Shown in pieces: positions 985-18,068 of a stretch of DNA of 64,000 nucleotides. Under the pieces are notes generated by a model. The model searched no databases. It saw nothing but the letters and a program-made list of their open reading frames with translations, and had not been told where the DNA came from. The DNA is taken from positions 2,272,001-2,336,000 of the forward strand of contig CP084166.1 of NCBI GenBank assembly GCA_021513695.1, given 5' to 3'. The DNA comes from Candidatus Heimdallarchaeum aukensis (GTDB lineage: Archaea; Asgardarchaeota; Heimdallarchaeia; Heimdallarchaeales; Heimdallarchaeaceae). Each line of letters begins with the position of its first letter. The first letter of the stretch is position 1. Made by a program: the position numbers and the translations under genes.

Positions 985-1683
985 TTATGTGTTGAAAGCT
1001 CTATCTCCTGCATCTCCTAATCCTGGAACAATGTAACCTTTTTCATTCAGTTCCTTGTCTATGTCTCCCGTGAGAATAATGGTTTCTGGATATTTATCCA
1101 ATATCCTATTGATGCCATATTCAGAAGCTATAGCACTTAATACAACAATCCTTTTCGGTTTTTGCTGGTAAAGATGATCTAGAATGAACAACATCGTTGA
1201 TCCACTAGCTAACATGGGGTCTACAATAATAGCTACATTTGATTCATCTAAATAAGGTATGTTTATGTAAGGGACATCAATTCTGAACTCTTTTCCTCCC
1301 TCCCGAAGCATTTTTCCTCTAGATGCAGAAACAACGCCCATTGAAGCTCTAGAAAACTGATTAATTACGCCCTCTGCCATTGGTAGCGCAGCTCTAAGTA
1401 TAGCAACCACTACAATATTGTCTCTAATCTTTCTTACTTCTGCAATACCTAATGGCGTTTCTACTTTTTCTCCTACATTATCAAAATATCTAGCTGCTTC
1501 ATAAGCTAGGTAAGTACCCAACTTTTGAAGATTAAATCTGAATTCTGCAGGTTCTGTTTCTTTATTACGTAAAGTTCCAACAACTTGAGAAACAAGTAAG
1601 TTTTCGTTACTTATATTTTTATACATCTCAAGAGGACTATAAATTTGAAAGAAGAAAAACATTTCTGAAGATGTAAACTTCAT
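985..1683 (-). CDS. upp: Uracil phosphoribosyltransferase
   Basis: UPRTase motifs: VVAILRAALPM, IVDPMLASGST (PRPP-binding loop), YIVPGLGDAGDRAFNT at the C-terminus. True start is probably the internal Met (MYKNIS, ~1626). Confidence 0.85.
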   Translation of the reverse strand: MKFTSSEMFFFFQIYSPLEMYKNISNENLLVSQVVGTLRNKETEPAEFRFNLQKLGTYLAYEAARYFDNVGEKVETPLGIAEVRKIRDNIVVVAILRAALPMAEGVINQFSRASMGVVSASRGKMLREGGKEFRIDVPYINIPYLDESNVAIIVDPMLASGSTMLFILDHLYQQKPKRIVVLSAIASEYGINRILDKYPETIILTGDIDKELNEKGYIVPGLGDAGDRAFNT

Positions 1684-1773
1684 GTCAAGTAAAGTTATCC
1701 TATAAGAAAGAATTATCTTTATTCAAAAAGTAAATTAAGAATAGTGAATATAGTTAATCATTAGATTTACAAG

Positions 1774-2463
1774 TTGTTCAGCATGTATTCGGAGCTAGAT
1801 AAAAAAAATAAAAGAAACTTAATTAAAAGAATAGGGGTTATGCATGGAATAGAGATTACAGATAGAATGATTCAAGCTTTTATTAATGTTCCACGTGAGG
1901 AGTTTGTTCTCGAAAGAGATAAAAATTCAGCTTATGTAGATTCTCCAAGACCAATTCTCGCTGGACAAACAATTTCAGCTATACACATGGTAATTATGTA
2001 TATTTCTCCCTCCCTCTCTGATCCAAAGGAAGGAGATATCGTTCTTGAAGTTGGAGCAGGAAGTGGGTACAATGCAGCACTTTTTGCAGAAATGGTGGCT
2101 CCAAAAGGGTCATCTAACCCTGGGCATGTGTATGCGTTAGAAATTATCCCCGAGCTGGTAGAGTTTGCAAGAGAAAACATCGAAAGAACAGGTTATTCTG
2201 ACAGAGTTACAATAATTCATGCAGATGGAGGTATAGGATATCCCGAAAAAGCTCCTTTTGATATAATCTCTGTTGCTGCTGCATCTAAAGGGATTCCAGA
2301 GCCGTTAAAGGAACAACTTAAGGTAGGAGGAAGAATGATTATTCCTGTTGGGACAACATTTTTTCAAGAACTGATATTAATAAGAAAGGAATCAAGTGGA
2401 AATTTTTCACAAAAAAATATTTGTGGAGTTAGATTCGTTCCTTTGACGGGAAAATACGGGTAA
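1774..2463 (+). CDS. pcm: Protein-L-isoaspartate O-methyltransferase
   Basis: SAM-binding motif VLEVGAGSGYNAALFAEMV, plus PIMT-typical GQTISAIHMV and FDIISVAAA, and C-terminal RFVPLTG. Confidence 0.85.
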   Translation: MFSMYSELDKKNKRNLIKRIGVMHGIEITDRMIQAFINVPREEFVLERDKNSAYVDSPRPILAGQTISAIHMVIMYISPSLSDPKEGDIVLEVGAGSGYNAALFAEMVAPKGSSNPGHVYALEIIPELVEFARENIERTGYSDRVTIIHADGGIGYPEKAPFDIISVAAASKGIPEPLKEQLKVGGRMIIPVGTTFFQELILIRKESSGNFSQKNICGVRFVPLTGKYG

Positions 2464-2495
2464 AAAGAGAATACAAAGACAGCCAATTTCTCTAT

Positions 2496-3530
2496 TCAAC
2501 TAAAAAAGGAGTCTAATCTTTTTTGTTGGAGAATGGATTTTTGTTCTTCTTTTGTTTTTGACAAAACATTTCTTACTCTAGCTTCATCAAAGCCTCTTTG
2601 TTCACACAAGAATTCAACTATTCCTTCAATATCTATCTCTCCAAAACTAAGGTCATAGTCTTCAGTAATTACAGGATTTCTAAAAACTTCGCGTATCTCT
2701 TCATAATCTGCATTTAACTCAATGTTAACATTTTCTAGAACTTTCTCTATAGTACCATACTGCTGAATATATTTGTAAGCTGTTTTTGGTCCCACTCCTT
2801 TTACTCCATCAGGATTGAAATCAGTTCCAATTAGAATGGCCATATCGATAAGTTGATCCGGAGTTAAGTTCAATTCCTTTAACAGATTTTCTCTGCGATA
2901 TATCTCAACATTTACAGTAATATATCGATTACTTCTGGGGAGTTTTCTTCTACCTGAGAGAGTTAAATTTCTAATCAATATTGGAGCTCCAAATAACAAA
3001 CTATCAAAATCTTGTGAAGCTACACCCCATACTTTCCTATGTTGAGCTAGATAAGCAGCCTGAGCTTCTCCTTCTTGTGGAGCTTCAATATAAGGGATTC
3101 CCATTAATCTGAGCAAGTGTTTAGCATCTTTTAACATATCTTCAGTCAATGAAACAGTTCTTTGTGCAACAGTGCGAACACGTTCCATGTCTCCTCTTTC
3201 TCTCGCTTCTTCTAGTTCTTCTCTTGCTTTTTCTTTTAATTTTACTCTTCTTCTTATTTCTTCCTTTTTAAGTTCTGATGGTTTTCCATCAAAAACATAA
3301 ACCAATTTTATTCCATGTTGTAATAGTCTAGCATTGCGGTATAAAAGACCAGATAAATGACTAGTAACCATTCCGTCTATATTTTTTAAAAGAGAACCAT
3401 CCATTCCTCTGATGGAAGCTAAAAATTGGTAGAGAATATTATATGCGTCTACAGCTAAACGCTTTCGACTTAAATCAGAAAGTTCTATAGGTTCTCCTTT
3501 AATGAGGTCTGAAATTTTCTTTACTCCCAT
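2496..3530 (-). CDS. fen: Flap endonuclease 1 (FEN-1)
   Basis: N-terminal MGVKKISDLI...AVDAYNILYQFL...GMVTSHLSG...VYVFDGKPSELK signature, an H3TH region (GIGPKTA-like GVGPKTAYKY), and a C-terminal PIP-like QKRLDSFF. Confidence 0.9.
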   Translation of the reverse strand: MGVKKISDLIKGEPIELSDLSRKRLAVDAYNILYQFLASIRGMDGSLLKNIDGMVTSHLSGLLYRNARLLQHGIKLVYVFDGKPSELKKEEIRRRVKLKEKAREELEEARERGDMERVRTVAQRTVSLTEDMLKDAKHLLRLMGIPYIEAPQEGEAQAAYLAQHRKVWGVASQDFDSLLFGAPILIRNLTLSGRRKLPRSNRYITVNVEIYRRENLLKELNLTPDQLIDMAILIGTDFNPDGVKGVGPKTAYKYIQQYGTIEKVLENVNIELNADYEEIREVFRNPVITEDYDLSFGEIDIEGIVEFLCEQRGFDEARVRNVLSKTKEEQKSILQQKRLDSFFS

Positions 3531-3656
3531 TTAAAACACCATTACTTGTATAACCTATATATTTTATTATTTAAAGTTAATTTCAAATAAAGATCTGAGA
3601 ATAAATGGTCTGAACAGACAAGAATTAAATAAGGAAAGAAAAAAGTTAAACCGCCA

Positions 3657-4898
3657 ATGACTAAAAGTAATGAATATGTATTTTTTAAACTTGGACGGAA
3701 TAAGGAGTTGGCGGAAGTTGAAATTTCCACAATTCTTGAGAAAGTGGGAATAAATAGAAAAATTAGTTATTTTCAGTGGAAAGAATTTCTCTTTGTTAAA
3801 ATAGAAAAAAAAGAAGAACAGAAGGTTCTTCAAAAAATTAGAGAAACTGGAAGTATAGTAAAAGTTGGTAGTTGTTTTGCAAAATGTAATTCTGAGATTG
3901 AAGTTAAAAAAGTGATACCAGACAAAATTAATCAGATAATAGAAAAATTCTCAGGAAAAAAAGAAAAAATAAAATTTTCAATTAACCTTCAAATAGAGAA
4001 AGAAAAACAAAAATCTTTTTCTGAAATAGTGAAGAATGAGATACTAAAAATTGCAAAAGATAAAAGGGTAGAAGTGAAGATAATTCCAAAAAAAGGATAT
4101 TCACTAGAACTTAGCCCTTACCAGTATCACAAAGAAAATATGCCAAAAAGAGGTGTAGAATTAATTATTTTTGGTATAAAGTCAAAGTTGTATCTTGGAG
4201 AAACAAAATGGGTAACAAATCCATTCTTTGACATAAAACTTGATGAAGGACGGCCAGAACGATTATTTACACATGGGACATCAATAAAAATGGCTCGTTC
4301 ATTAATTAATCTCACAAATATCAAGAAAGGTTGTAAAATAGTAGATCCTTTTTCAGGAACAGGAACTCTATTGATTGTAGGATTGTTACAAGGTTATGAT
4401 GTTTTGGGTTTTGAAAAAGATCCGAGATGTGTTAGAGTTGCTAAAACAAATATACGTTGGGCAGTTGATAAATACAAACTTGAGCGAAGTTGGAAAATAT
4501 ACAAGAATGATGCCAGGGATATGCATAAAATAATTAGTGAAAAAGTTGATGCAGTTGTAACAGAACCATATTTAGGGCCATTTCTAAAAACTCTTCCTGA
4601 TTTAGAAGAAGGAAAAAAAATAATCCATGAACTTGAAAAGTTATATGCTAAAGTTTTATATTCGTGTAGTCAAATCTTGAAAGATGATTCTAGAGTAGTC
4701 ATAATCTTTCCTTTTTATGAATATCCAGACAAAACTAAACTTTCAATTAATTTAGAACGTGTAATAAATGGTTTATCGTTAGAACTAGTAGAAAAGACTC
4801 TTCACTTTAATGTTAGTTTTCCTATCAGCATCGGAAGAGAACATAATATTATCTCAAGACAAATTGTTATACTAAAGAAAAATAGTATGAAACAATAA
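3657..4898 (+). CDS. THUMP-domain RNA/tRNA methyltransferase (Trm11/Trm-G10-like class I SAM-dependent methyltransferase)
   Basis: An N-terminal THUMP-like region followed by a Rossmann fold carrying VDPFSGTGTLLIVG (motif I) and the later VVTEPYLGPF (motif IV-like). Confidence 0.55.
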   Translation: MTKSNEYVFFKLGRNKELAEVEISTILEKVGINRKISYFQWKEFLFVKIEKKEEQKVLQKIRETGSIVKVGSCFAKCNSEIEVKKVIPDKINQIIEKFSGKKEKIKFSINLQIEKEKQKSFSEIVKNEILKIAKDKRVEVKIIPKKGYSLELSPYQYHKENMPKRGVELIIFGIKSKLYLGETKWVTNPFFDIKLDEGRPERLFTHGTSIKMARSLINLTNIKKGCKIVDPFSGTGTLLIVGLLQGYDVLGFEKDPRCVRVAKTNIRWAVDKYKLERSWKIYKNDARDMHKIISEKVDAVVTEPYLGPFLKTLPDLEEGKKIIHELEKLYAKVLYSCSQILKDDSRVVIIFPFYEYPDKTKLSINLERVINGLSLELVEKTLHFNVSFPISIGREHNIISRQIVILKKNSMKQ

Positions 4899-4931
4899 TC
4901 TTTCAATCTTTGTTTAATTTACTAATCTTAT

Positions 4932-5195
4932 TTAATCTTCGCCAACCGCAAGAAAACTCATATCTTTTGTTAGTTTTTGGATACGTCTTTTAGTTTTAGA
5001 AATCCATGAGACATGAATTAATCCATTAGTTTCCAAAGAGAGTAGAGCTTTGTTTAATTCAGTTTCGGAATAATCGCCATAAAGTTCTCTAAGTGGATTT
5101 TCTAGCTCATTCTCAATAATTACTCCGCCCCGTTTTTCTAAAATTGCGAGAATACAAGATTTTAATGGCGTAACTCTCCATGCTGCAGAGGTCAT
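4932..5195 (-). CDS. Small winged-helix (wHTH) DNA-binding-like protein
   Basis: 87-aa ORF with a helix-turn-helix-like pattern (LAILEKRGGVIIENEL...NGLIHVSW). No further assignment possible. Confidence 0.3.
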   Translation of the reverse strand: MTSAAWRVTPLKSCILAILEKRGGVIIENELENPLRELYGDYSETELNKALLSLETNGLIHVSWISKTKRRIQKLTKDMSFLAVGED

Positions 5196-5343
5196 CGTAG
5201 AATCACCTAAAATAAAGATGTAGTAAGCTTTTTAGAATGTTTTGTTCCACAAGAAAAAGAGTCGAACTTTTAAATCTAAGAGACAAAATAAATTAGAAAG
5301 ACAAAATTTTTAATATATACTTTTTTTCAAGTTTTTAGTTATT

Positions 5344-5523
5344 ATGAACACACGAAATCGTATATATGTGATTATTACTTTATCGATAGCAATATTATTC
5401 TTAATCATTGCAATTGTTCAATCACAAATTGACAGTTTTAGCGCAATAACGAAGATGACTGAAGAAGAAGTGAAAAATTTCTTGTCGGGATACTTAGCAG
5501 GTTTCCCAAAACCATGGGAATAA
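5344..5523 (+). CDS. Small single-pass membrane protein (59 aa), immediately upstream of the polyferredoxin gene
   Basis: ATG..TAA ORF. The hydrophobic segment IYVIITLSIAILFLIIAIV is followed by an acidic tail. Below the 60-aa cutoff of the ORF track; co-oriented with 5539. Confidence 0.3.
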   Translation: MNTRNRIYVIITLSIAILFLIIAIVQSQIDSFSAITKMTEEEVKNFLSGYLAGFPKPWE

Positions 5524-5538
5524 AGTGAGAGGATTGAA

Positions 5539-6465
5539 ATGACAAAGAACAAAGAAAAAAACATAACATTATCTTTACGTCCGATAACTAATCATAAAAT
5601 TAGAATAGTTAGAATCATTACACAATTAGTAATATTTAGCTTATTAAACGGGTTAATATTTGGGCTAGCTAGAGTAAGTTTAATTTTACCTATTGAATAC
5701 CCTACAGGAGGACCATTTTCTACGGTATGGAGTGGTTTTGAAGCGTTACAGTATGGGCTAACAATCTTTACCTTCCCCTATCTTGTAATAGCTATCTTTG
5801 GATTATTTGGAGCTGTGGCTGGAAAAACAACTTGTGGATGGGCTTGCCCAATGGGATTATTCCAAGATTTATTTAGTTACATCCCAATAAAAAAGAAAAA
5901 AGTTTCTAAACCAACAGAAAAGTCACTAAGAAGTTTCGCCGTGTTCATTATTATATTCGCTTTAGTATTCTCTTTAGTCATAGGAATATCTTATAATAAA
6001 AACGGTTCTGCAGCAAAAGACGCTTATGGAATATGGGGAAATATTCCTTATAGTGTGTTAGATCCCGTAGCAACAATTTTTGCAACTCTGTTTTATTATC
6101 TAAAATGGGGAATCCAAGCAGAAACACTTGGAGCTGAAATGGGTGATTGGAAATTTTGGTTTATTGCAAGAATATTATTCTTAGCAATAATCTTAATCCT
6201 CATAACCTTATATCCAAGAGCTTATTGTAGATGGTTCTGCCCAACAGGATACATATTAGGCTTTTTCAATAACTTTAGTCTATTTGGTTTAAAAATAAAT
6301 AAGAATAGATGTCCAACTGGTTGTAATAAATGTGAAAAAGCTTGTCCGGTTCAAGTACCTATACTAGATTATGATAAGAACATAACACATCCCAATTGTA
6401 CAAATTGTGGAGAATGTATAGATGCTTGTCCTGAAGGAGCTCTAAAAATAGGTTTCAGATTCTGA
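5539..6465 (+). CDS. Membrane-bound polyferredoxin (NapH/MauN-like 4Fe-4S protein)
   Basis: Multiple TM helices with CGWACPMG and CRWFCPTG motifs, and a C-terminal 2x[4Fe-4S] ferredoxin region (CPTGCNKCEKACP ... CTNCGECIDACP). Confidence 0.65.
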   Translation: MTKNKEKNITLSLRPITNHKIRIVRIITQLVIFSLLNGLIFGLARVSLILPIEYPTGGPFSTVWSGFEALQYGLTIFTFPYLVIAIFGLFGAVAGKTTCGWACPMGLFQDLFSYIPIKKKKVSKPTEKSLRSFAVFIIIFALVFSLVIGISYNKNGSAAKDAYGIWGNIPYSVLDPVATIFATLFYYLKWGIQAETLGAEMGDWKFWFIARILFLAIILILITLYPRAYCRWFCPTGYILGFFNNFSLFGLKINKNRCPTGCNKCEKACPVQVPILDYDKNITHPNCTNCGECIDACPEGALKIGFRF

Positions 6466-6519
6466 TTATCCAAACTTATTTCATAGAAATTCTTTTTCTT
6501 TTCTCTTTTCTTTTTTGTA

Positions 6520-7773
6520 TTAACTTTGAATTTGTAAAGAATGATGGTATGCTTCTTTTTCTGTTTTTTGAAGAATAGAACTGTAACCTTTTTCTAAATA
6601 ATCCTGAATAATCGAAAGAACTGATTTTGATATGGGAAGTTTAACACTGTTATTAGTTTTCAGTATTTCTTCTATACTCACTTCAAGAGAGTCAAGATAA
6701 AGAGCAGCAGAATAAAGTTCCTTAATAAAGTTGTAATTCTTATGTATAATGAACCCTTTTAAATGAGACATTTTTAATAAAATCTCTGATAAAATTAAAT
6801 TAACCTTATTCGCTTGCTCTGGAATATATCGAATAGGAGAATAACCAAGTTTCATTTCATAATTATATCTAAAAGCTTTAACGCGCGGAAGAACCAATCC
6901 TAATCTTTTGAATGCTTTTCTGTCGAAATCCCCATATTTATCATTGTTTCCGTAAAGCTCTAAATATTTGGCTACCAAATGAGGATAATGTTTTCTAAGG
7001 GTATCAATAAATTCATCTTTATTTCTCCCTGGCTTAAGAGTAAGTCCCCAAGTGATAACATACTCTGCATTAGCTTTTTTTGCTTTGTGAAAAATATTTT
7101 CAATGTTTTCTTTTGTATCTCCAATAAAGGGTAAACATGGATTGAAATAAACCCCAGAATGTATTCCTTCTTTACGTAATTTAGAGATAGCTCGAAAACG
7201 ATCCTCTGAAGAACTAGCACGAGGTTCGAAAATCTTACGAACTGAATCATCCGCGAGAGTGATAGTGAAATTAACACTAGCATAAGTCTGTTCATTAATA
7301 GCTTTAAGCAAGTCAAGATCACGAAGAACGAGAGTGCTTTTTGTGAGAATGAAGACTGGTAATTCATAATCATGTATGACTTGAAGAAGTTTACGAGTAA
7401 GTTGAAGTTCTTTTTCTGCAGGTTGATAGACATCGCAAACTCCTCCACCTACAAAAATAACGAATTTAGAAGGAGAAGGCATCTGAATTCGCTCAACTGT
7501 AGTATCTAAATAGTTGAGTAATGAGTGGGATGAATTAGGAGAAAAAAATCCTCTTTTTTTGAGATATTTCTCCAAGAGCTCTGGAGCATTAACCTTAACT
7601 TTGATTCGATTAGCAAAATCTTCATGCATATAATAGGATTCAGCTTTACCGTCACAATATTTGCAATCGTGCCAACAACCCTGATAGGGATTAAGGTAAA
7701 CTTTAGCCCAAGAGAAAAAAGAAGGTGTTACTTCTTTAATTAACGATTTAGCACGAATACGTTCAATGATCAT
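6520..7773 (-). CDS. Radical SAM protein (SplB-like / COG1533 family)
   Basis: N-terminal CxxxCxxC radical-SAM cluster motif (GCWHDCKYCDG). 417 aa, normal host composition. Confidence 0.65.
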   Translation of the reverse strand: MIIERIRAKSLIKEVTPSFFSWAKVYLNPYQGCWHDCKYCDGKAESYYMHEDFANRIKVKVNAPELLEKYLKKRGFFSPNSSHSLLNYLDTTVERIQMPSPSKFVIFVGGGVCDVYQPAEKELQLTRKLLQVIHDYELPVFILTKSTLVLRDLDLLKAINEQTYASVNFTITLADDSVRKIFEPRASSSEDRFRAISKLRKEGIHSGVYFNPCLPFIGDTKENIENIFHKAKKANAEYVITWGLTLKPGRNKDEFIDTLRKHYPHLVAKYLELYGNNDKYGDFDRKAFKRLGLVLPRVKAFRYNYEMKLGYSPIRYIPEQANKVNLILSEILLKMSHLKGFIIHKNYNFIKELYSAALYLDSLEVSIEEILKTNNSVKLPISKSVLSIIQDYLEKGYSSILQKTEKEAYHHSLQIQS

Positions 7774-7876
7774 TGTTTTCCCAATTAATCAAATAGAGTT
7801 TTTTTTATTTATAAAGATAGTTAGGTTGCTAGATTATCACCTTTAGATAAAGAAAAAAAGACATAGAATTAAAATA

Positions 7877-8947
7877 TTAAAACGATAAGGAAAAAAAGTC
7901 ATTGTTATTAAGTTTCGAATGAAACAAATAGCTTTTCCATTCAAGTTTACACGAACAAGAAGGTAAGTCCTGAAGAATATTGGGATCTTGAGAAAGAGTG
8001 AAATCTTTTAGGGCTTGAACAATTGTAGAGTCACAAGAACCACAGTTATGAGCTCCTCTCTTTTTACCTCCTGCAACAGGGTCACAAATGATTCTTAAGT
8101 TGGGATAGAGAGTAGAAAGTTCTCGGCAGATATGTACAAGTGACCATAAGTAGGGGGGACGATAAAGATTCTTATCAAAAAGTGAAGAGAGATAAGTGTC
8201 GCGTTGTATATTTATTGCATTAATTGATACGGTGTCTACCCCTAAAGAAACAACCTGTCTAACACTGTTAAAAACGTCCAACATGGAGTCAAATTCTGAA
8301 ACAAAAGGTGGTTTGAAAAGAAGGTAAGCTTTAATTTTTGCCCCAAAGGAAAAAACACGTTTTGTAGCACGTTCGAAATCTTCCCAAAAGAAACCTTTGT
8401 TTATAGAATCACGAAGAATAGCATTATTCGCACTTTCTAATCCTATAGCAATCTCAACTTTAGAAATATCAAAGTGATCACGGAGAAGTGTTAGTTTTTT
8501 TTCTGTAACATATGAAGGTCGAGACTCTAGTACTAACTCTTTAATACTTGACGAATAAGGTTGAAGTTCATGAAGGATAGAAATTAGAACATGGTTTGGG
8601 ACTTCGAGAGAATCAAGAATGCTACCACTAGTAAATAGTTTTATAGAATAAGAAAGGGACGGATCAATTAAAGAGGATAATTTAGAAGAAAAATCAGAGA
8701 GCATCTCTGAAAAATCTGGTTTTTGAGGGTTATCATAAAGATAACCGCAAATTGAACAACCTCCACTACGAGAAAGAGCCCAAGAACAACCTCTTGTAGG
8801 AAGAATAAAAACAATAGCTTTTGCTGGGCCAGTACGAAGACGATGATCTTCAACCCATGCAACAAGACGACGTGAAGTAGAACGCTTGGAAAGGGCTGAT
8901 TGGCGGTAACTATGGATTATGGAACTAAAAGAAGGGTTTATTTTCAT
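7877..8947 (-). CDS. Elp3-related radical SAM enzyme, likely RaSEA, the archaeosine-formation partner of ArcS
   Basis: Elp3-like cluster motif with long spacing (RGCSWALSRSGGCSICGY). A 4-nt ATGA overlap with the upstream arcS start suggests translational coupling. Ser-rich atypical composition. Confidence 0.6.
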   Translation of the reverse strand: MKINPSFSSIIHSYRQSALSKRSTSRRLVAWVEDHRLRTGPAKAIVFILPTRGCSWALSRSGGCSICGYLYDNPQKPDFSEMLSDFSSKLSSLIDPSLSYSIKLFTSGSILDSLEVPNHVLISILHELQPYSSSIKELVLESRPSYVTEKKLTLLRDHFDISKVEIAIGLESANNAILRDSINKGFFWEDFERATKRVFSFGAKIKAYLLFKPPFVSEFDSMLDVFNSVRQVVSLGVDTVSINAINIQRDTYLSSLFDKNLYRPPYLWSLVHICRELSTLYPNLRIICDPVAGGKKRGAHNCGSCDSTIVQALKDFTLSQDPNILQDLPSCSCKLEWKSYLFHSKLNNNDFFSLSF

Positions 8948-10872
8948 TTTGTTTCACCTTTTTTGAGTTTGAGTTTTTTCTTTACTATAGCTAAAGAACC
9001 AGATGACATTTTATTCATGTCAACACCAGCAATAAGTGCACGAGCAGTGGCCAAAACACAACCTGAATTAACAATAAATATTTCATCAGATGGAAGAATA
9101 AATTCAGAAGCGTGATTACAACCAGGGGCGTAGATAGAACTACCTGTGATGGTCTCTGCAGCAAAATCTAAGTTGACGAGAGAGTAATCGAGAATCTCTT
9201 GAGCTGCTGCTGGCTGGAGAGAAAGAAAACCTGTACGGGAAAGATATGTGGCTATAAGTTTTTTTTCTCTGAATATCTGGATGTCTCTAGGATATTTACC
9301 ACGAGTGCGAATTGGAGAAGAAAAGAGAATATTACCTGAGCCAGGACCGTATTGGTAATCTGCCGTAGCAATGAGTTTGCGGAGAAAAGGAGATAGATTG
9401 TGAGATGAATTGGAGTCAGTAAGGTCCAAAGAAGAAAAAACTTCGCGTAGGGTTGAAGAAAGATTAGAAAGAGATGAAGAACTAGTTGGACGATCAGATA
9501 TGGAAGTATGATATACAGTCAAATTCAAAGAATTAGAAACACGTTCAACTATATCAGAGTAACCTTGACCATATGTGTGATTAATAAGAATAATGTTTTC
9601 TGGAAACTTAGAAAGAACATCAATGAGAAGAGACGAAGTGACAGCTATTTCTTCTTCTGACCAGAAACCTGAAACTGGTATATCATAAAAACGAGGAGGA
9701 TAAAGAGATTCGAGTTCACGAGGAACAACAGAAAGCGGAGAGGTAATTATTAACTCTGAAAGAAATGGTAAAAAGGATTTTCCTGCTTGACGGAGAGATT
9801 GAATAAAAAGTGAATGAGAGCGAGAAAGAGAATAAGGTTTTCTTGCAGAACAAGGAAAAAGAATTACAACTCGAGTTTGAGGAGATGGATTAAAGCGTTC
9901 TCGAACACGATGTCGGAAAAGTTCAACTTCAGGACGATTAAGCGATGAAGAGCTAGTACAAACTAAAGAAGTAGACTGTTGAGCTGGAAAGCGAGAAAGG
10001 AAGGTAGAGGAATAGTTACGGTCGAAGTAATTGAGAGTCGAAGAAAGAAGGGGTGAAGAATGAACATCGCGTTCTACTAAAGTACGAAGGTTATCAGACT
10101 CCAAAAAGAAACGGATTTGAGAAAGTTTGTTAGCCATGACTTGAAGATTGTGTCCTAGGATGTCGGGAGGAGAAGAGCGGCAGAAAGAACAATAACATTC
10201 TGGATGATTAGAAAGAGGATAAACAGAATCAGAAGTGAGGAAAAAACCTCGTTCTGAGAGATAGTAAGCAAGAGAATCGTCGAAAAAGTCTATACCTGAA
10301 TAGACAAGAAAAGAATAATAGGCGGGGGCAATTGGACCAGGAACATATAGAGCTATATCTGGAGAAAGTCGAGAGCGTAGAGAAACAAATAATTCAGAAA
10401 GTTTACGCTGATTGTTAAAGAGAGAAGAAAGACCAGTAAGAACAAAAAAAGAACAGTCAGTAGATAAAACATCTTCTAATAGAGGAGAATCGAAGAAAGT
10501 ATAAGGTAAAGTAAAAATTTGAGAATGAAGGTCTGGGAGAGATAGAAAAGAGGTAACATATTCAGAAAAAGATGATTCTGACAGAGTAGATGAAACAAAC
10601 GAAGGGTAAAATGGTTGAGATGAAAGTGTAAAAGAAGAAGAAAGAACTCGCTCGGAAAGGTGAGGTGGAAAAGACCATCGTAACTGGAAAGAAGAATCTA
10701 AGTCAGAAAAACGGGGAGGAAAAGAAGAATCAAAAAAACCTGAAAAGCCAAAATTAGAAGGTTTGTTACCAGAATTGAAAGAGAGAAGACCTGGTGCGAG
10801 GATATGAGAAGTACGAGTCTCAGCTAAAAGGCGAGAAAAACCAAAGGCAGAGAGAGGTTGAAAGAAACGCAA
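8944..10872 (-). CDS. arcS: Archaeosine synthase ArcS (TGT-like catalytic domain + ArcS-specific domain + PUA)
   Basis: TGT-type zinc site CxCxxC...H (HPECYCSFC). ArcS-specific PCxxxKPY motif (FPCSARKPY). TGT-like YVPGPIAP...GIDFFDD segment. C-terminal PUA-like region. Strongly Ser/Leu/Phe-rich. Confidence 0.7.
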   Translation of the reverse strand: MRFFQPLSAFGFSRLLAETRTSHILAPGLLSFNSGNKPSNFGFSGFFDSSFPPRFSDLDSSFQLRWSFPPHLSERVLSSSFTLSSQPFYPSFVSSTLSESSFSEYVTSFLSLPDLHSQIFTLPYTFFDSPLLEDVLSTDCSFFVLTGLSSLFNNQRKLSELFVSLRSRLSPDIALYVPGPIAPAYYSFLVYSGIDFFDDSLAYYLSERGFFLTSDSVYPLSNHPECYCSFCRSSPPDILGHNLQVMANKLSQIRFFLESDNLRTLVERDVHSSPLLSSTLNYFDRNYSSTFLSRFPAQQSTSLVCTSSSSLNRPEVELFRHRVRERFNPSPQTRVVILFPCSARKPYSLSRSHSLFIQSLRQAGKSFLPFLSELIITSPLSVVPRELESLYPPRFYDIPVSGFWSEEEIAVTSSLLIDVLSKFPENIILINHTYGQGYSDIVERVSNSLNLTVYHTSISDRPTSSSSLSNLSSTLREVFSSLDLTDSNSSHNLSPFLRKLIATADYQYGPGSGNILFSSPIRTRGKYPRDIQIFREKKLIATYLSRTGFLSLQPAAAQEILDYSLVNLDFAAETITGSSIYAPGCNHASEFILPSDEIFIVNSGCVLATARALIAGVDMNKMSSGSLAIVKKKLKLKKGETK

Positions 10873-11055
10873 AAATTACACCTAATAAAAGAAAATAAAA
10901 GAAGATTAAAAAGAATACGATTAGAAAGAAAAGAAAGACGGAACATTAGAAATAATTAAAACGATTTATATAAAATTTAAAATAAAAAAGGCTAATACTC
11001 TTGAGAAAAAATCAGTTGTATAATAAAAAAAGCAAAAGAAAAACTTTTCAAAAGT

Positions 11056-11096
11056 AACGAAAATTTTAAAACAGTTAAAAAAGTAGAAGTATCAGA
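11056..11096 (+). promoter_or_regulatory. Copy 1 of a 41-bp direct repeat (aacgaaaattttaaaacagttaaaaaagtagaagtatcaga) upstream of tRNA-Lys(CTT). Contains a TATA-like tttaaaa.
   Basis: Exact repeat of 11275..11315. Downstream flanks remain similar for ~25 nt more. The position fits an archaeal tRNA promoter cassette. Confidence 0.6.
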
Positions 11097-11132
11097 AAAG
11101 CCTAAAACTTGCGAAAACGAGCGTTTTAGATG

Positions 11133-11209
11133 GGCCTCGTGGCTTAGTTAGGTAAAGCAACGGACTCTTAATCCGTCGATCAGGGGTTCAAATCCCCTCG
11201 AGGTCACCA
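11133..11209 (+). tRNA. tRNA-Lys(CTT), 77 nt with encoded CCA
   Basis: Manual fold: acceptor GGCCTCG/CGAGGTC; D stem GCTT/AAGC; anticodon stem ACGGA/TCCGT with loop CTCTTAA (anticodon CTT at 11167-11169); T arm AGGGG-TTCAAAT-CCCCT; discriminator A + CCA. Confidence 0.9.
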
Positions 11210-11217
11210 ATTTTTTA
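11210..11217 (+). terminator. Oligo-T tract (attttttag) directly after tRNA-Lys(CTT). Archaeal-type terminator.
   Basis: A T6 run immediately 3' of the tRNA. Confidence 0.4.
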
Positions 11218-11274
11218 GATTGTTCTTTTAAATAAGTTTGAATCCTCTACAATCCATTTTTGATTTTATTCTTA

Positions 11275-11315
11275 AACGAAAATTTTAAAACAGTTAAAAA
11301 AGTAGAAGTATCAGA
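11275..11315 (+). promoter_or_regulatory. Copy 2 of the 41-bp promoter-cassette direct repeat, upstream of tRNA-Lys(TTT)
   Basis: Identical to 11056..11096. Confidence 0.6.
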
Positions 11316-11347
11316 CATGCTTAAGACTTGAGAAAACAACATTCTCG

Positions 11348-11455
11348 GGGCTTGTAGCTCAGCTAGGTAGAGCAGCAGGCTTTTAAGCTTTCTGCGAGCC
11401 ATGCAAAAGCGCTGACACCTGTCGGCCATGGGTTCGAATCCCATCAAGCCCGCCA
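11348..11455 (+). tRNA. tRNA-Lys(TTT) with a ~31-nt intron in the anticodon loop (approx. 11386..11416). Encoded CCA.
   Basis: Acceptor GGGCTTG/CAAGCCC; D stem GCTC/GAGC; anticodon stem GCAGG...CCTGT interrupted after position 37; anticodon TTT at 11382-11384; T arm ATGGG-TTCGAAT-CCCAT; discriminator G + CCA. Confidence 0.85.
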
Positions 11456-11556
11456 AACTCTTTTTACCTTGTTTGAAAAGAAATCAAGAAGAGATACTAT
11501 AAAGTCAAAAATTTTTTTCAACATATTTTAATAATTTATTATTTTCTATATCTTGC

Positions 11557-12606
11557 ATGAAAACTACTCATGAAATTATATACTCCTCTTCTAGCTCTCT
11601 TCCTTCTATTCTTTCAAGTAGTGTTAATATTGTTGTCACTTCTCCCCCTTATCCAATGATTGAGATGTGGGATGAGCTTTTTTTTAATCTTAATCCTGAA
11701 ATCAAAACTTCTTTAACCTCTTATCCATCTTTAGCTTTTGAGCTTATGCATTTAGAGCTTGACAAAACTTGGAATGAAATTGATCGTCTTCTCAAACCTG
11801 GTTCGATTGTTTGCATAAACATTGGTGATGCAACGCGAAAGATTGATGGTAACTTTGCTCTTTATTCTAATAGTTCTCGAATAATCAGAAAATTTCTTGA
11901 ATTGGGCTATTTTTGTTTACCTTCTATTCTGTGGCGCAAACAAACTAACTCTCCCACCAAATTTATGGGGTCAGGCATGCTTCCTCCCGGTGCCTATGTA
12001 ACTTTAGAACATGAGCACATCTTGCTTTTCCGTAAAGGTTCTAAGCGAGAGTTTAATTCTTCCGAATCTAAATTGAATCGTCGTCGTAGCGCTTATTTTT
12101 GGGAAGAACGTAACCTTTGGTTTTCTGATATTTGGGAGTTTAAAGGCGTAAGTCAAAAACTAAATTCTGAAGTTTTGCGCTCTCGTAGTGCTGCATATCC
12201 TTTTGAGTTAGCTTTTCGCCTTATTAACATGTTTTCAGTTCAAGGTGATACAGTTCTTGATCCTTTTTTAGGTACGGGAACAACTACTCTAGCAGCTATT
12301 ACTTCATGTCGTAACAGTATTGGTGTAGAAATTGATAAAAATTTCAAGGCTATTATTCTCGAAAGCATAAGAAAGGTAAAAGATTTTGCAAATGGTTATA
12401 TTGATAATCGTTTGCAGGCACATCTGGCTTTTGTTAAACAAAAAGAAGAAACACATTCCTTTAAGCATCGTAACTCTATTTATGGTTTTCCTGTTATGAC
12501 TGCACAAGAAACTGATCTTTACTTTCCTAAAATTAAAAATGTTAAAATAAAAGATGAATCGCTTTTCGAAATTATTTATAAAAATAAAGAAAAGATTTAT
12601 TCGTAA
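11557..12606 (+). CDS. DNA methyltransferase, beta-class amino-methyltransferase (N4-cytosine or N6-adenine); no cognate restriction enzyme nearby
   Basis: Motif IV SPPY (VVTSPPYP) precedes motif I (DPFLGTGTT). Atypical codon usage (TCT/CTT/CGT-rich). Confidence 0.8.
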   Translation: MKTTHEIIYSSSSSLPSILSSSVNIVVTSPPYPMIEMWDELFFNLNPEIKTSLTSYPSLAFELMHLELDKTWNEIDRLLKPGSIVCINIGDATRKIDGNFALYSNSSRIIRKFLELGYFCLPSILWRKQTNSPTKFMGSGMLPPGAYVTLEHEHILLFRKGSKREFNSSESKLNRRRSAYFWEERNLWFSDIWEFKGVSQKLNSEVLRSRSAAYPFELAFRLINMFSVQGDTVLDPFLGTGTTTLAAITSCRNSIGVEIDKNFKAIILESIRKVKDFANGYIDNRLQAHLAFVKQKEETHSFKHRNSIYGFPVMTAQETDLYFPKIKNVKIKDESLFEIIYKNKEKIYS

Positions 12607-13376
12607 AAATCATCTCTTGTTCCAAACTCTCTTTCTATTGCAGCGATTAGTGTTTCTATATTATGCATAGTTGTCGCGCTTATTGGAAACAGTTCACCTG
12701 TGTTTCTAAATTGTTCTATAGTTTGTATTATGTTCAATCCTAGTTGTTTTGATAATGATATTGTTTGTCCTCTTTCTATTTCTATTCCTATTGTTTCTGG
12801 TTCTTCTATCCATCTTTCTAATCTTTCTTTGTGATCTTTTTTTATTAAATCTGCTTTTGAAATTACGGGTATTTGAGGGAGTTCTAATTGGAATTCTACT
12901 GATAGGCTTAGTAATAATATGCTTGCTAAACCTTCAGGTTTTAGTACTAATGATGGATCTATTAGGAACACCGATACAGGTTCTCTGTTTTCTTTTAACA
13001 TATTAGCGATAAACTTTCCACTGCTTCTATATGCAAATAATTCTATTTGTCCTGGTGTGTCTACGATTAAATATTGAGGGTCAACGTACTCCACTTCTGA
13101 CATCAAATCATGTATTTTAGTTGCTATTAGGTCCATACTGGCTATCATCGCCCCATTTGGACCTAGGTTGTATTCGTTTACTATTTCATTTATGTCTACT
13201 ATATCTCTTACATCTATCGCAGGAGCGTAAGGTATTGTTCTTACACCCGCATCTAAGTTAAGTATACCTACATCTAACTTCTTTTCCGAGAACCAATCAA
13301 ATAATGTCCTTGTCAGAAAAGTTTTTCCTGCTCCCGCAGTTCCAAGTAGGTAAATTATGTATTTTCTATCTGGCAC
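12597..13376 (-). CDS. GPN-loop GTPase (Npa3/XAB1 family)
   Basis: P-loop GTAGAGKTF, a signature GPN loop (EYNLGPNGAMIAS), and DTPGQIE. Confidence 0.85.
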   Translation of the reverse strand: MPDRKYIIYLLGTAGAGKTFLTRTLFDWFSEKKLDVGILNLDAGVRTIPYAPAIDVRDIVDINEIVNEYNLGPNGAMIASMDLIATKIHDLMSEVEYVDPQYLIVDTPGQIELFAYRSSGKFIANMLKENREPVSVFLIDPSLVLKPEGLASILLLSLSVEFQLELPQIPVISKADLIKKDHKERLERWIEEPETIGIEIERGQTISLSKQLGLNIIQTIEQFRNTGELFPISATTMHNIETLIAAIEREFGTRDDFYE

Positions 13377-13379
13377 TTT

Positions 13380-14165
13380 TTATTCTCCTATTTCTGTTAT
13401 CTTTATTTTGGGTTGATTCTCTTTTATTTTATCCATCAAAAACCTTTTTGCTTTTGCGACTATTTTTTCTCCTTCTTCTCCAGAATATGAAAAATGAATT
13501 GTTATTCCTTTTCTTTCTCCAAATTGAGGATGAGATTTAACATACAGTTTTTTAAATTTCTTCTTTGTTTGATTAATATAAGGTGCTATCTCACTTTCTC
13601 TACAGTTTTCTATCAGTATTTTACATTCTGTTATGCGGGTTTTTATTTTAGACGATAGGTAAGGGTGAATAGCCGTTGTGTATATAGATTTCACCTCCGT
13701 TGGGACACCAGGCAAACAGAATATCTCTGTTTTCTTATATTTTATTAAACATCCTGGCGCTGCTCCCGCACTGTTGTTTAGTATTTTTCCTCCTTCAGGT
13801 ATCATTGCCATCTTTCTTCTCTCTTCACTCATTTCTAATCCATACTTTTCATAATGCTCTTTTATTAACTCTAAGGCTTCTTTATTTTCTATAAGTCTCT
13901 TTCCTGTTACTCTTGATATAACTTCCATTTGTATATCATCATATGTTGGACCCAATCCACCTGTGACAATCAATATTTCTGGTTCTCTCTCTATGACTTC
14001 TTTAATGCACTCGCTTGCTTGTTCTAGATCATCCCTTACACTAGTTATTCTTCTTACTTCTATTCCTAATCTGGTTAGCTGTTCTCCAAGGTAAGTTGCG
14101 TTTGTATTAACAGTAATTCCCATTAGCAGTTCGTTTCCTAAACAAACAATCTCCGCTGTAACCAT
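13380..14165 (-). CDS. CinA-like molybdopterin-binding (MoCF_biosynth) domain protein
   Basis: N-terminal AEIVCLGNELLMG...LIVTGGLGPTYDDIQ pattern typical of CinA/MoaB-fold proteins. Confidence 0.6.
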   Translation of the reverse strand: MVTAEIVCLGNELLMGITVNTNATYLGEQLTRLGIEVRRITSVRDDLEQASECIKEVIEREPEILIVTGGLGPTYDDIQMEVISRVTGKRLIENKEALELIKEHYEKYGLEMSEERRKMAMIPEGGKILNNSAGAAPGCLIKYKKTEIFCLPGVPTEVKSIYTTAIHPYLSSKIKTRITECKILIENCRESEIAPYINQTKKKFKKLYVKSHPQFGERKGITIHFSYSGEEGEKIVAKAKRFLMDKIKENQPKIKITEIGE

Positions 14166-14195
14166 TTTTTTTCCTTCTTTACATTTTTCTAATTA

Positions 14196-15272
14196 TTATT
14201 TTGATCTGTTTACTCCCATTTTTGCTATTTCTATGAGATATTCTTTATACTTCTTTTCAAATGCAGGCTCTGCTTTTTCAATAAACAATTTACATGTTGA
14301 GAATAATTCTTCTGCTTTTGCTTTAGCATAATCTAAAGCTCCTGTTTCTCTCATAATGTCTTTTATTTCTTCTATTTCTTCTTTTGTTGCATTTCTTTTC
14401 CCAATTACTTGTTTGAGTTTGTCTTTTTCTTTGTCATTCGCATTTTCTATTGTCTTTATTAGTAAAATTGTTTTTTTTCCTTCTTTAATATCGCTATCTA
14501 CTGGTTTTCCTGTTTTCATTTCATCTCCAAACGTACCAATGATGTCATCTACAATCTGGAAAGCTATTCCCATATTTCTTGCATAGGATGACAAAGCTTT
14601 AAGTTGCGTTTCTTCTGCTTCTGCATAAATTGCTCCCATTTTTGTTGCTTTTTCAAATAACGCTGCTGTTTTTCCATTTATCATTTCAAAATATTGCTTT
14701 TCTGTTACTTCAAATCTCCCTTGCATGTCTGTTTCATAGATGACCCCTTTTACAACTTCCATAAATCCCTTATTAAATTCTGAAGCTGCTTTTATCATTA
14801 TATCTGGTTTGAAATCTACTCTGTTTAGTGCTTTGTATGCTAAATTATAAACAAAATCTCCCCCTAGTATCCCCATGGCTAGGCCATAATCTTCAGGTTG
14901 AACATTCTTTTTGGGATAATTTTGCTTTGAATAATCTCTTAAAACTACATGAAAAGCTTTTTTTCCTCTTCTTGTTTCAGCAAAATCCATTATGTCATCA
15001 TGAATTAAACTAGCATTATGAAGAAGCTCTATCGATAATGAAGCAGGATAAATGGATTCATTGAAGTTAGTGTTTAAACAAGCTTCATAGGAAAGTAACA
15101 TAAGTACTGGTCTTATCCTTTTTCCTCCTGAAAATAGAAAATTATTAACTTCTTGAACATAATATTCTAAAAAAGGATTGTCCTTACATGCAGCAATTTC
15201 TTCGTTTATAAACTGTGTAAGTGCAATATTTACTTGTTCCATTTTTTTAGTGTAGAAACCTTTGAAATTCAT
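14196..15272 (-). CDS. Polyprenyl diphosphate synthase (GGPP synthase-like, trans-isoprenyl diphosphate synthase)
   Basis: First and second Asp-rich motifs LIHDDIMD and QIVDDIIG, plus GKxxxxD. Confidence 0.85.
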   Translation of the reverse strand: MNFKGFYTKKMEQVNIALTQFINEEIAACKDNPFLEYYVQEVNNFLFSGGKRIRPVLMLLSYEACLNTNFNESIYPASLSIELLHNASLIHDDIMDFAETRRGKKAFHVVLRDYSKQNYPKKNVQPEDYGLAMGILGGDFVYNLAYKALNRVDFKPDIMIKAASEFNKGFMEVVKGVIYETDMQGRFEVTEKQYFEMINGKTAALFEKATKMGAIYAEAEETQLKALSSYARNMGIAFQIVDDIIGTFGDEMKTGKPVDSDIKEGKKTILLIKTIENANDKEKDKLKQVIGKRNATKEEIEEIKDIMRETGALDYAKAKAEELFSTCKLFIEKAEPAFEKKYKEYLIEIAKMGVNRSK

Positions 15273-15420
15273 TAACTATCCCTTGATATTTTGAGAGAAA
15301 GGTAATATTATTAATTTTTTTCTAAGAATTTATCCTTATCTGTATTTTCCATTTTTTTAAATTAAAAAATCCTTTATCCCAATTTATTTAAACTCTCTTT
15401 CCTTCCTTTATAAGAATAAT

Positions 15421-16050
15421 ATGCATTCCTATTTAAAAAAATTTCAAGAAGTTGCACAATCAATTGAAACAGAACTTAATAAAAAATCAACTTTAAAGGA
15501 AAAGTTGCTAAAGTTATCTCGTGATCTAGTAAAAACTTCTGGAAAAGTTATTTCAAATGTCCATTCAAAAAGAGTAAACGAAGCAGAACAGTTGCTCTCT
15601 ACTGCTATGTCACTTCACTCTCAGATCTGTGAGTTACTTTCTCAAGATCCGTCTTTTACAGATTCAGGATATATTTTAACAGCTTTACAAGAGTTTACTG
15701 AAGCCCACATTTTCTTCTCTTTGATTTCTAATTCTCCAATTCACTCTCCAACAGAGTTAAATGTAACTGATCAAGCTTACTTGTTAGGAATTGCAGATGT
15801 TATTGGAGAACTTCGGAGGCATATTCTTGAGATATTAATAAATGATAATATTGAGGAAGCAAAGAGGTTTTTTCAATTAATGAAAGACTTGTATGATATT
15901 TTCTTACAAATAGAAATCGACAAATCTTTGATCAGTGACTTTAGAAGAAAGCGGGACATGGCTAGAGTTTTGATAGAAAAAACTCTCTCCGATTTGTTTA
16001 TTGCAATTCAAAGTAAAAGATTAGAACTAAAAATGAAAGACTTAAGCTAA
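15421..16050 (+). CDS. Translin-family protein
   Basis: All-alpha ~209-aa protein with a YLLGIADVIGELRR segment closely matching the translin YLLGVADLTGELMR core. Confidence 0.6.
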   Translation: MHSYLKKFQEVAQSIETELNKKSTLKEKLLKLSRDLVKTSGKVISNVHSKRVNEAEQLLSTAMSLHSQICELLSQDPSFTDSGYILTALQEFTEAHIFFSLISNSPIHSPTELNVTDQAYLLGIADVIGELRRHILEILINDNIEEAKRFFQLMKDLYDIFLQIEIDKSLISDFRRKRDMARVLIEKTLSDLFIAIQSKRLELKMKDLS

Positions 16051-17423: not shown

Positions 17424-17426
17424 TCT

Positions 17427-18062
17427 TTACATCCTGATGTTCTTTTGGATAATTTCTTGCATAATTTTTGAGGTTGATTTTCCTGGAACATATTGATTTA
17501 ATCTGATTATCTTTATATGTTCTAATCTATTCTCTTTTAATCTATTCTTTAGATCTTCTTCATTGAATTTTTGGTCATAACCTAAAGCTATAATATCTGG
17601 CATTATCTGCTTTACTGTTAAAATGAAATCTTCTTCATTTCCAATAACTGCCACATCTACATCTTTTATGTGGGCTATTACTTGTGCTCGATCCTTTTGC
17701 GAATTTGTTGGTTCGCGTTTTTTTAATTTCCTAACATTATTATCTGTAGTTATAACTACAACAAGCACATCCCCTAGTAACTTTGCCTGTTTAAGGGTAA
17801 AAATATGCCCAATGTGAATGAGGTCAAATACTCCCCCAGTCATAACTACTGAAATTTGTTTCCTCCCAAATTCTGTCAACGATAAATCATTTTCGTCTTG
17901 TCTTGCCAAAGAACCATTTCTTATTAATTCGTTAACAGTTTCTTGGATAATCTCTACAGGCAGTTCTAATCTTCGAGCAAGGTTTATACTATTCGTCTTT
18001 CTTTTTACTAATATGTCACAATAAGCATGTCTTAGAATCAAATTATCAATTGAGCCTGTCAT
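17427..18062 (-). CDS. ribL: FAD synthetase RibL-like cytidylyltransferase fused to an N-terminal wHTH domain
   Basis: C-terminal half matches archaeal RibL (GGVFDLIHIGH nucleotidyltransferase motif, DIIALGYDQ). The N-terminal ~65 aa are predicted wHTH. Confidence 0.7.
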   Translation of the reverse strand: MTGSIDNLILRHAYCDILVKRKTNSINLARRLELPVEIIQETVNELIRNGSLARQDENDLSLTEFGRKQISVVMTGGVFDLIHIGHIFTLKQAKLLGDVLVVVITTDNNVRKLKKREPTNSQKDRAQVIAHIKDVDVAVIGNEEDFILTVKQIMPDIIALGYDQKFNEEDLKNRLKENRLEHIKIIRLNQYVPGKSTSKIMQEIIQKNIRM

Positions 18063-18068
18063 CTTTTA

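Follow-up and report, generated by a model that had tools for sequence, protein, structure and literature searches.

Does a radical S-adenosylmethionine (SAM) gene that stands beside the genes for archaeosine formation take part in that pathway, or is it merely a neighbour? The question is raised by a 64,000-nt stretch of the genome of Candidatus Heimdallarchaeum aukensis (contig CP084166.1, positions 2,272,001 to 2,336,000; hereafter the window, with a G+C content of about 32%), in which three genes follow one another on the minus strand. The first, arcS (8944-10872), starts with TTG and encodes the 642-residue archaeosine synthase α subunit, as judged from Pfam and NCBIfam matches and a conserved N-terminus; the second, RaSEA (7877-8947), encodes the 356-residue radical SAM enzyme for archaeosine formation, recognised by the model TIGR01210; and the last, here called the third gene (6520-7773), encodes a stand-alone protein of 417 residues that matches Pfam Radical_SAM and has a spore-photoproduct-lyase-like predicted fold. 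A preliminary description of the locus called all three tRNA-modification-type genes and suggested that the third might contribute a further enzyme to archaeosine or 7-deazaguanine chemistry, or else be unrelated to it. The three open reading frames (ORFs) are indeed present and co-oriented where they were described, and the third gene does lie 3' of RaSEA in the same orientation; it is not "immediately downstream" in the strict sense, since a 103-bp spacer (7774-7876, minus strand) separates the two and there is no overlap. Our analysis indicates that the third gene adjoins RaSEA only through a rearrangement specific to the genus Heimdallarchaeum, and that it probably has no part in archaeosine chemistry.

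From an alignment of 26 homologues of the third protein we scanned GTDB at one genome per species and extracted 80 loci, flanks of up to 10 kb included. Searching these by tblastn with the window ArcS and RaSEA, we found the pair near a member of the third family in Candidatus Heimdallarchaeum endolithica PR6 only (CP084167.1, locus L001). PR6 is syntenic with the window and its proteins are 92-99% identical to those of the window; at more than 90% identity, the arrangement there does not count as an independent observation. No trace of ArcS or RaSEA was seen within up to 10 kb at any of the other 79 loci, even at E<1, and 55 of these loci include at least 3.2 kb of upstream sequence, which is room for both genes. 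The query was sensitive enough for this purpose, because RaSEA orthologues in Asgard archaea, Thermoplasmata and Archaeoglobi are 36-67% identical to the window RaSEA over more than 90% of its length. Clustering of all ORFs from the 80 loci revealed no neighbour gene common to the whole third family. A Pfam scan of 136 immediate neighbours returned nine GNAT acetyltransferases and seven FixX-like ferredoxins, the rest being scattered, and none of TGT, DUF5591 or PUA is among the 25 commonest Pfam families in that set. The third family also extends to bacteria, with members on contigs of Bacillota, Spirochaetes and Brevinematales that share 41-49% identity with the window protein; as a tRNA base, archaeosine is confined to archaea (PMC11298593). 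Neither conserved co-localisation nor restriction to archaeosine makers, as a three-gene module would have it, was observed.

The view from the RaSEA side is the same. In two related Heimdallarchaeia (loci L081 and L083), whose RaSEA orthologues are 67% and 61% identical to that of the window, the gene that follows RaSEA is a convergent ORF of 306-327 amino acids (aa) and not the third gene. Its counterpart in the window is ORF 99-983 (61% and 44% identity), and between the latter and RaSEA there are about 6.8 kb (985-7773) with seven ORFs: a UPRTase, a PCMT, a FEN1, a Trm14-like methyltransferase, an 87-aa ORF, a NapH-like ferredoxin protein and the third gene. From L081 and L083 we infer an ancestral order RFK...arcS-RaSEA-(homologue of ORF 99-983). 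On the other side of arcS, the block GPN-CinA-GGPPS-translin-MOFRL-CTP_transf-RFK (12597-18761) is inverted in the window relative to L081. Because adjacency is seen at 0 of the 79 other family loci and at neither of the two neighbouring RaSEA loci, we attribute the position of the third gene to a genus-specific rearrangement. The preliminary description had named gene-neighbourhood analysis among the ways to check its suggestion and a lack of co-occurrence as the result that would speak against it, and at the level of gene neighbourhoods this lack is what both sets of loci display. The closest homologue of the third gene outside PR6 (L085, 59% identity) comes from the metagenome that contains L081, where it is found on a separate contig. 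We also noted that a fragment of an IS605 OrfB (TnpB-type) gene stands beside that homologue, at the start of the fetched locus (L085, positions 2-178), as would fit a gene that has been moved around.

The spacer between RaSEA and the third gene contains two signals of its own. A run of seven T residues (7859-7853) stands shortly 3' of the RaSEA stop codon, and TTTATAAATA is found at 7815-7806, 32 nt upstream of the ATG of the third gene; the spacer is 97% identical in PR6, where both elements are retained. The T run would be an archaeal oligo-T terminator and TTTATAAATA a putative TATA box, and together they suggest that the third gene is a separate transcription unit, probably transcribed from its own promoter independently of arcS-RaSEA. 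A scan for sigma-70 promoters and hairpin terminators is uninformative for an archaeon, and its sole terminator-like match fell inside RaSEA. Two points weigh on the other side: there may be read-through from RaSEA into the third gene, and the strand skew described below decays smoothly from arcS through RaSEA to the third gene, which would fit a shared transcription unit or, equally, a shared local environment.

The idea that the third enzyme is an extra participant in archaeosine or 7-deazaguanine chemistry, encoded in a three-gene operon in Heimdallarchaeum and responsible, for example, for further derivatisation of archaeosine (G+) or for action on 7-deazaguanine in DNA, can be weighed at this point. 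It draws on the co-orientation of the genes and on the mere 103 bp between the last two, on the retention of the arrangement in PR6, and on the fact that the third gene, RaSEA, arcS and a DNA methyltransferase gene are contiguous and have the most extreme pyrimidine-rich synonymous sites of the window. Moreover, virus-encoded ArcS-like C1 domains act on DNA-borne preQ0 (PMC10516641), and the third protein looks DNA-directed. Against this, the adjacency is limited to one genus, of which PR6 is no independent witness; bacteria also have members of the family; sequences resembling a terminator and a promoter lie in the spacer; base composition is ordinary in the homologues of the third gene that other genomes carry; and the window ArcS is the full, four-domain tRNA-type enzyme rather than the core alone that is typical of viruses. 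We therefore regard a role in archaeosine chemistry as highly improbable. To call the third gene "tRNA-modification-type" was an interpretation and not an observation, and the evidence points to a gene unrelated to archaeosine: of the two options offered in the preliminary description, "unrelated" is favoured, and the other is left unsupported, with no ArcS or RaSEA close to the family outside PR6.

What kind of enzyme, then, does the third gene encode? Its only Pfam match is the generic Radical_SAM model (60.8 bits). The motif GCWHDCKYCDG, pointed out earlier from the sequence, is present at residues 32-42, and the cysteines of its CX3CX2C cluster motif (C33, C37 and C40; 7654-7677, minus strand) are invariant in an alignment of 88 homologues, which has a mean column identity of 59%. 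In the same alignment Y116, within GGGVCDVYQ, and an EP.AS motif are invariant, and C113 is conserved in at least 90% of sequences. The closest named sequence families are those of PA0069 and Rv2578c (NF033668 and NF038135), which belong to COG1533 and represent the SOS/LexA-regulated "SplB" of non-sporulating bacteria. The third protein matches them partially, over residues 110-278, with 157.4 and 156.9 bits, and shares D-x-YQ-x-E and EPRAS-type motifs with them; these scores are far under the respective cut-offs of 360 and 430, and the two models have no counterpart of a C-terminal domain that we describe below. P. aeruginosa counts PA0069 among its SOS genes (bioRxiv 10.1101/2022.03.14.484287), Rv2578c carries a LexA site (PMC3381160) and, in Bacteroidetes, a COG1533 "splB" belongs to the SOS core (PMC8565304). 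Regulation by LexA does not apply in archaea.

The AlphaFold2 model of the third protein, computed from the 88-homologue alignment, is of high confidence and has a mean predicted local distance difference test score (pLDDT) of 92.2 and a predicted template modelling score (pTM) of 0.90. Its best structural match is 4fhc, the spore photoproduct lyase SplB of Geobacillus thermodenitrificans, with 16% sequence identity and with agreement from the Foldseek TM-score; in the model, the radical SAM core has the spore photoproduct lyase fold. Radical SAM enzymes of the tRNA type score lower in the structural comparison (TYW1 11.5, MiaB 11.6 and QueE 11.4). The earlier label "SplB-like" is thus correct for the fold. 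It does not extend to membership of the spore photoproduct lyase equivalog: the match to TIGR04070 reaches 18.4 bits (E 8e-4) against a cut-off of 400 and covers residues 151-235 only. The third protein further differs from SplB in an insertion of about 30 residues modelled at low confidence (residues 75-105) and in an extra C-terminal domain of about 100 residues. In spore photoproduct lyase a relay for hydrogen atoms runs through Cys140, Tyr96 and Tyr98 (G. thermodenitrificans numbering). C113 and Y116 of the third protein are candidates for equivalent positions.

A true spore photoproduct lyase, repairing 5-thyminyl-5,6-dihydrothymine, would account for 4fhc being the top structural match and for the labels "DNA repair photolyase" or "SPL family" that several sources attach to the third family. 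We nevertheless consider this reading very unlikely, given the TIGR04070 score, the 16% identity to 4fhc and a C-terminal domain that spore photoproduct lyase does not possess. The hosts, moreover, are anaerobic sediment archaea that form no spores, and there is no evidence of spore photoproduct formation in archaea (PMC4929162).

The additional domain is a helical one, comprising approximately residues 318-417 (6523-6822, minus strand), and in the predicted structure its fold resembles the 8-kDa domain of family X DNA polymerases (Pol X). Six independent Pol X structures match the modelled domain, all over the same region. In the literature searched we found no description of a radical SAM enzyme of the spore photoproduct lyase fold combined with a Pol X-type 8-kDa domain. 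Compared with the 8-kDa domains of Pol β, Pol λ, TdT/Pol μ and bacterial PolX, that of the third protein gives no significant sequence match and is devoid of the hairpin glycines; its position, moreover, is C-terminal, in a radical SAM enzyme, and not N-terminal, in a polymerase.

We propose that the third gene is an independent gene whose product joins a radical SAM core with the COG1533/spore photoproduct lyase fold to a C-terminal domain that has the shape of the Pol X 8-kDa domain. The C-terminal domain would dock the enzyme on DNA, the [4Fe-4S]/SAM site would generate a 5'-deoxyadenosyl radical, and the radical would then reverse or process a base lesion or a cross-link. DNA as the substrate, like the chemistry performed on it, is suggested by the likenesses described above, and we put the chance that the protein acts on DNA at about even. 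On a somewhat more tentative footing, we hypothesize that the family, which is uncharacterised and strongly conserved (44-60% identity from Asgard archaea to Bacillota), may be a radical-based DNA-lesion reversal enzyme of anaerobes, in which a spore photoproduct lyase-fold core is joined to a Pol X-type domain for binding DNA ends or gaps and the substrate is recognised through this polymerase-like module.

Several observations weigh against this proposal. The likeness of the C-terminal domain to Pol X is a matter of predicted structure, and its support at the level of sequence is weak. Searches of the PDB with profiles of the whole family and of the C-terminal domain returned only designed helical repeats and insignificant matches to Pol β (E 0.1-1), and alignment of the domain with residues 1-103 of Pol β by hhalign, for which the Pol β sequence was entered by hand, gave a probability of 11%, in a register that pairs KLP-ISKSVLSIIQDYLEKG with a 20-letter stretch. 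In Pol β, Lys72 is the nucleophile of the dRP-lyase reaction, and Lys35 and Lys68 bind the 5'-phosphate; in this low-confidence register K35, K68 and K72 align to I, F and S in the third protein. A search of 1.84 billion representative proteins with the profile of the C-terminal domain produced 45 clusters, nearly all of them C-termini or fragments of the third family, and no sequence bridge to Pol X. Nor did we find a DNA-repair partner conserved across the family, an XPD/DinG-like helicase-nuclease adjoining the orthologue of the third gene in just 11 related Heimdall loci (L006, L008, L011, L014, L015, L017, L022, L023, L028, L031 and L045). This divergent helicase is about 783 aa long, with DEAD_2, HBB and Helicase_C_2 domains and an N-terminal PD-(D/E)XK nuclease domain; it offers a weak and clade-limited DNA-repair context.

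The same observations bear on a different reading, in which the third enzyme is likewise unrelated to archaeosine but acts on RNA, a protein or a metabolite, its C-terminal bundle being a generic interaction domain. The weak similarity in sequence to both spore photoproduct lyase and Pol X would fit, as would the non-conservation of the lysines that Pol β uses for the lyase reaction and for 5'-phosphate binding, the failure to find a repair partner conserved across the family, and the frequency of GNAT acetyltransferases among the neighbours; the latter are clade-specific, as are the helicase-nuclease neighbours. A paralogous subfamily, moreover, keeps company with electron-transfer genes. On the other hand, six independent Pol X structures agree in matching one region of the C-terminal part, the related PA0069 and Rv2578c are SOS genes, and TYW1, MiaB and QueE are poorer structural matches than spore photoproduct lyase. 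We judge a substrate other than DNA to be unlikely, and favour action on DNA.

The members of that paralogous subfamily are 44-49% identical to the third protein and lie, in several Heimdallarchaeota (L044, L048, L054, L057, L058, L059 and L065), directly 3' of a FixC-like (ETF-QO, 431 aa) and a FixX-like (103 aa) gene. These two genes could provide a dedicated supply of low-potential electrons to the radical SAM cluster. It has been reported elsewhere that archaeal SplB-like genes, with no known substrate, sometimes adjoin the gene for the PCNA-binding repair protein NreB (PMC4929162), and that COG1533 is found in organisms that neither sporulate nor are exposed to UV light (PMC11383801).

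With the third gene set apart, arcS and RaSEA remain as a pair, and this pair is an ordinary archaeosine module of a kind already known. The TGA of arcS (8946-8944) and the ATG of RaSEA (8947-8945) share an ATGA overlap (8944-8947, minus strand), as the preliminary description had noted, and a Shine-Dalgarno-like GGTGA (8958-8954) precedes the RaSEA ATG by 6 nt. Adjacency of the two genes is kept in L001, in L081, where they also overlap by 4 nt, and in L083, where a gap of 4 nt separates them. According to published work, ArcS is active only in complex with RaSEA; it attaches lysine to the preQ0 that occupies tRNA position 15, after which RaSEA converts preQ0-Lys to archaeosine; both genes are present in 196 euryarchaeal species (PMC11298593). 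By homology to the Thermococcus system, the window pair would be a translationally coupled two-gene operon serving the final steps by which archaeosine (G+15) is made in tRNA, in which ArcS, in complex with RaSEA, would add lysine to preQ0 at position 15 and the radical SAM enzyme RaSEA would next turn preQ0-Lys into archaeosine. As far as the ArcS-RaSEA complex of Thermococcus kodakarensis (Yokogawa et al. 2019) is summarised in PMC11298593, the likeness comprises a four-domain ArcS (N-terminal TGT-like, C1/DUF5591, C2 and PUA), a RaSEA of the TIGR01210 type with its cysteine triad, and adjacent, translationally coupled genes. The differences are that the host of the window pair is an Asgard archaeon (Heimdallarchaeaceae) and that its putative ArcS departs in composition and in equivalog score, as described below.

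Family matches, motifs and invariant residues bear out the identities given earlier to both proteins. RaSEA scores 306.4 bits against TIGR01210 (cut-off 212.15), its residues 31-347 covering positions 2-309 of the 313 in the model, and the orthologue in PR6 already carries the name RaSEA at NCBI. In an alignment of 12 orthologues from Asgard archaea, Archaeoglobi and Thermoplasmata, the cluster cysteines C54-X9-C64-X2-C67 (8747-8788, minus strand) are invariant, as are C302, C305, C331 and C333.

ArcS matches the Pfam model of the C1 domain, DUF5591 (PF17884), with 146.4 bits (cut-off 26) over residues 316-475, and exceeds the cut-offs for TGT (27.4 against 26.3) and TGT_C2 (30.5 against 25.3). 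The PUA match, at 19.5, is under its cut-off of 24.8, yet it falls at the expected place (residues 576-632), and the window protein thus has every further domain of an ArcS that acts on tRNA (N-terminal TGT-like, C2 and PUA). The C1 signature PC-X3-KPY-X2-S-X2-H, as defined in PMC10516641 with reference to Phillips et al. 2010, reads PCSARKPYSLSRSH in the window (residues 340-353; 9814-9855, minus strand), and an alignment of 16 family members has 37 invariant columns, those of the signature included, all of which are preserved in the window protein. One result counts against the assignment: the score against the NCBIfam ArcS model NF040592, 362.7 bits with the alignment beginning at residue 137, is below the equivalog cut-off of 440. 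This shortfall coincides with a divergent N-terminus and with a drift in composition, and it is this extreme composition (Ser 17.4%, Lys 2.8%) that, together with the score, distinguishes the window protein from known ArcS. We considered whether the start of arcS had been mis-called and rejected this. The TTG start (10872-10870) is supported because a Shine-Dalgarno-like AGGTG (10879-10883, minus strand) lies 6 nt upstream and because the N-terminus, MRFFQPLS.FGF.R.LAE, is common to the orthologues of L081 and L083 (631-636 aa), one of which has an ATG start. None of ArcS, RaSEA and the third protein matched the PADLOC defence library.

The drift of ArcS belongs to a wider island of strand skew at 7000-12600, centred at about 11100-11300. 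On the plus strand, both GC skew and AT skew are close to 0 at about position 7,000 and increase smoothly to +0.46 and +0.50 at 10,400-11,100, that is, over the 5' end of arcS and the spacer upstream of it, and both change sign at two tRNA genes; on either side of the centre, the pyrimidine-rich strand is the one running away from it. The four lowest purine fractions at four-fold degenerate sites among the 56 ORFs of the window belong to four contiguous genes: arcS (0.21), the DNA methyltransferase gene (0.23), RaSEA (0.28) and the third gene (0.30). At the four-fold sites of arcS, T accounts for 0.64, A for 0.19 and G for 0.02, compared with about 0.55 A and 0.26 T in ordinary minus-strand genes of this region. 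The shift affects all three codon positions, and the serine content of ArcS is the highest among 108 full-length homologues (mean 8.5, standard deviation 2.3). The purine fraction of the arcS coding strand is graded across relatives, from 0.518 in L083 through 0.444 in L081 to 0.344 in the window. A recent inversion was considered as the cause and rejected: the orientation of arcS-RaSEA is ancestral relative to ORF 99-983, and the skew of the window exceeds that of its relatives. We also considered a gene antisense to arcS, but the plus strand has no ORF of at least 80 aa there. Our guess is that the island arises from a mutation bias tied to divergent transcription.

The region around the centre of the island has other peculiarities. 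Compared with PR6, there is a valley of divergence at 8944-13376, where the ArcS, methyltransferase and GPN genes differ at 2.7-3.3% of nucleotides and the outer flanks at 11-17%; the two lineages may have recombined or exchanged genes recently, or the stretch may be under unusual constraint. The spacer between arcS and the methyltransferase gene (10873-11556) is 684 bp long in the window and 1.8 kb in PR6 (L001, about 5090-6900). In PR6 it holds a tRNA-Lys gene with a 28-nt insertion in the T-arm, which neither ARAGORN nor Rfam calls, together with an inverted part of the second tRNA and a 106-aa ORF; the spacer looks like a rearrangement hot spot. In the window, the second tRNA gene (11348-11452, plus strand) contains an intron of roughly 31 nt and is recognised by Rfam (60.7 bits) though not by ARAGORN, and a duplicated element of 63 nt, 92% identical between its copies (11056-11118 and 11275-11337), precedes each tRNA gene and is probably a shared promoter region. 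Beyond the tRNA genes lies the DNA methyltransferase gene (N6_N4_Mtase; 11557-12606, plus strand), whose product aligns along its entire length with a PADLOC model for Type II methyltransferases (485 bits). At its 3' end the gene shares 10 nt with the GPN-loop GTPase gene, which converges on it, and no restriction enzyme was identified among its annotated neighbours.

For the archaeosine pathway, the window pair is an Asgard example of the known arcS-RaSEA operon, and in its ArcS a skew extending over 4-5 kb has driven serine to 17% with the invariant residues intact, a clean natural case of nucleotide bias reshaping a conserved enzyme. The apparent three-gene arrangement is explained by a local rearrangement, and recognising it as such guards against an annotation that would assign the radical SAM gene to archaeosine formation through guilt by association. 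For the family to which that gene belongs, the predicted Pol X-type DNA-binding domain provides a testable handle on the role of the COG1533 "SplB-like" proteins in non-sporulating organisms (PMC4929162, PMC11383801).

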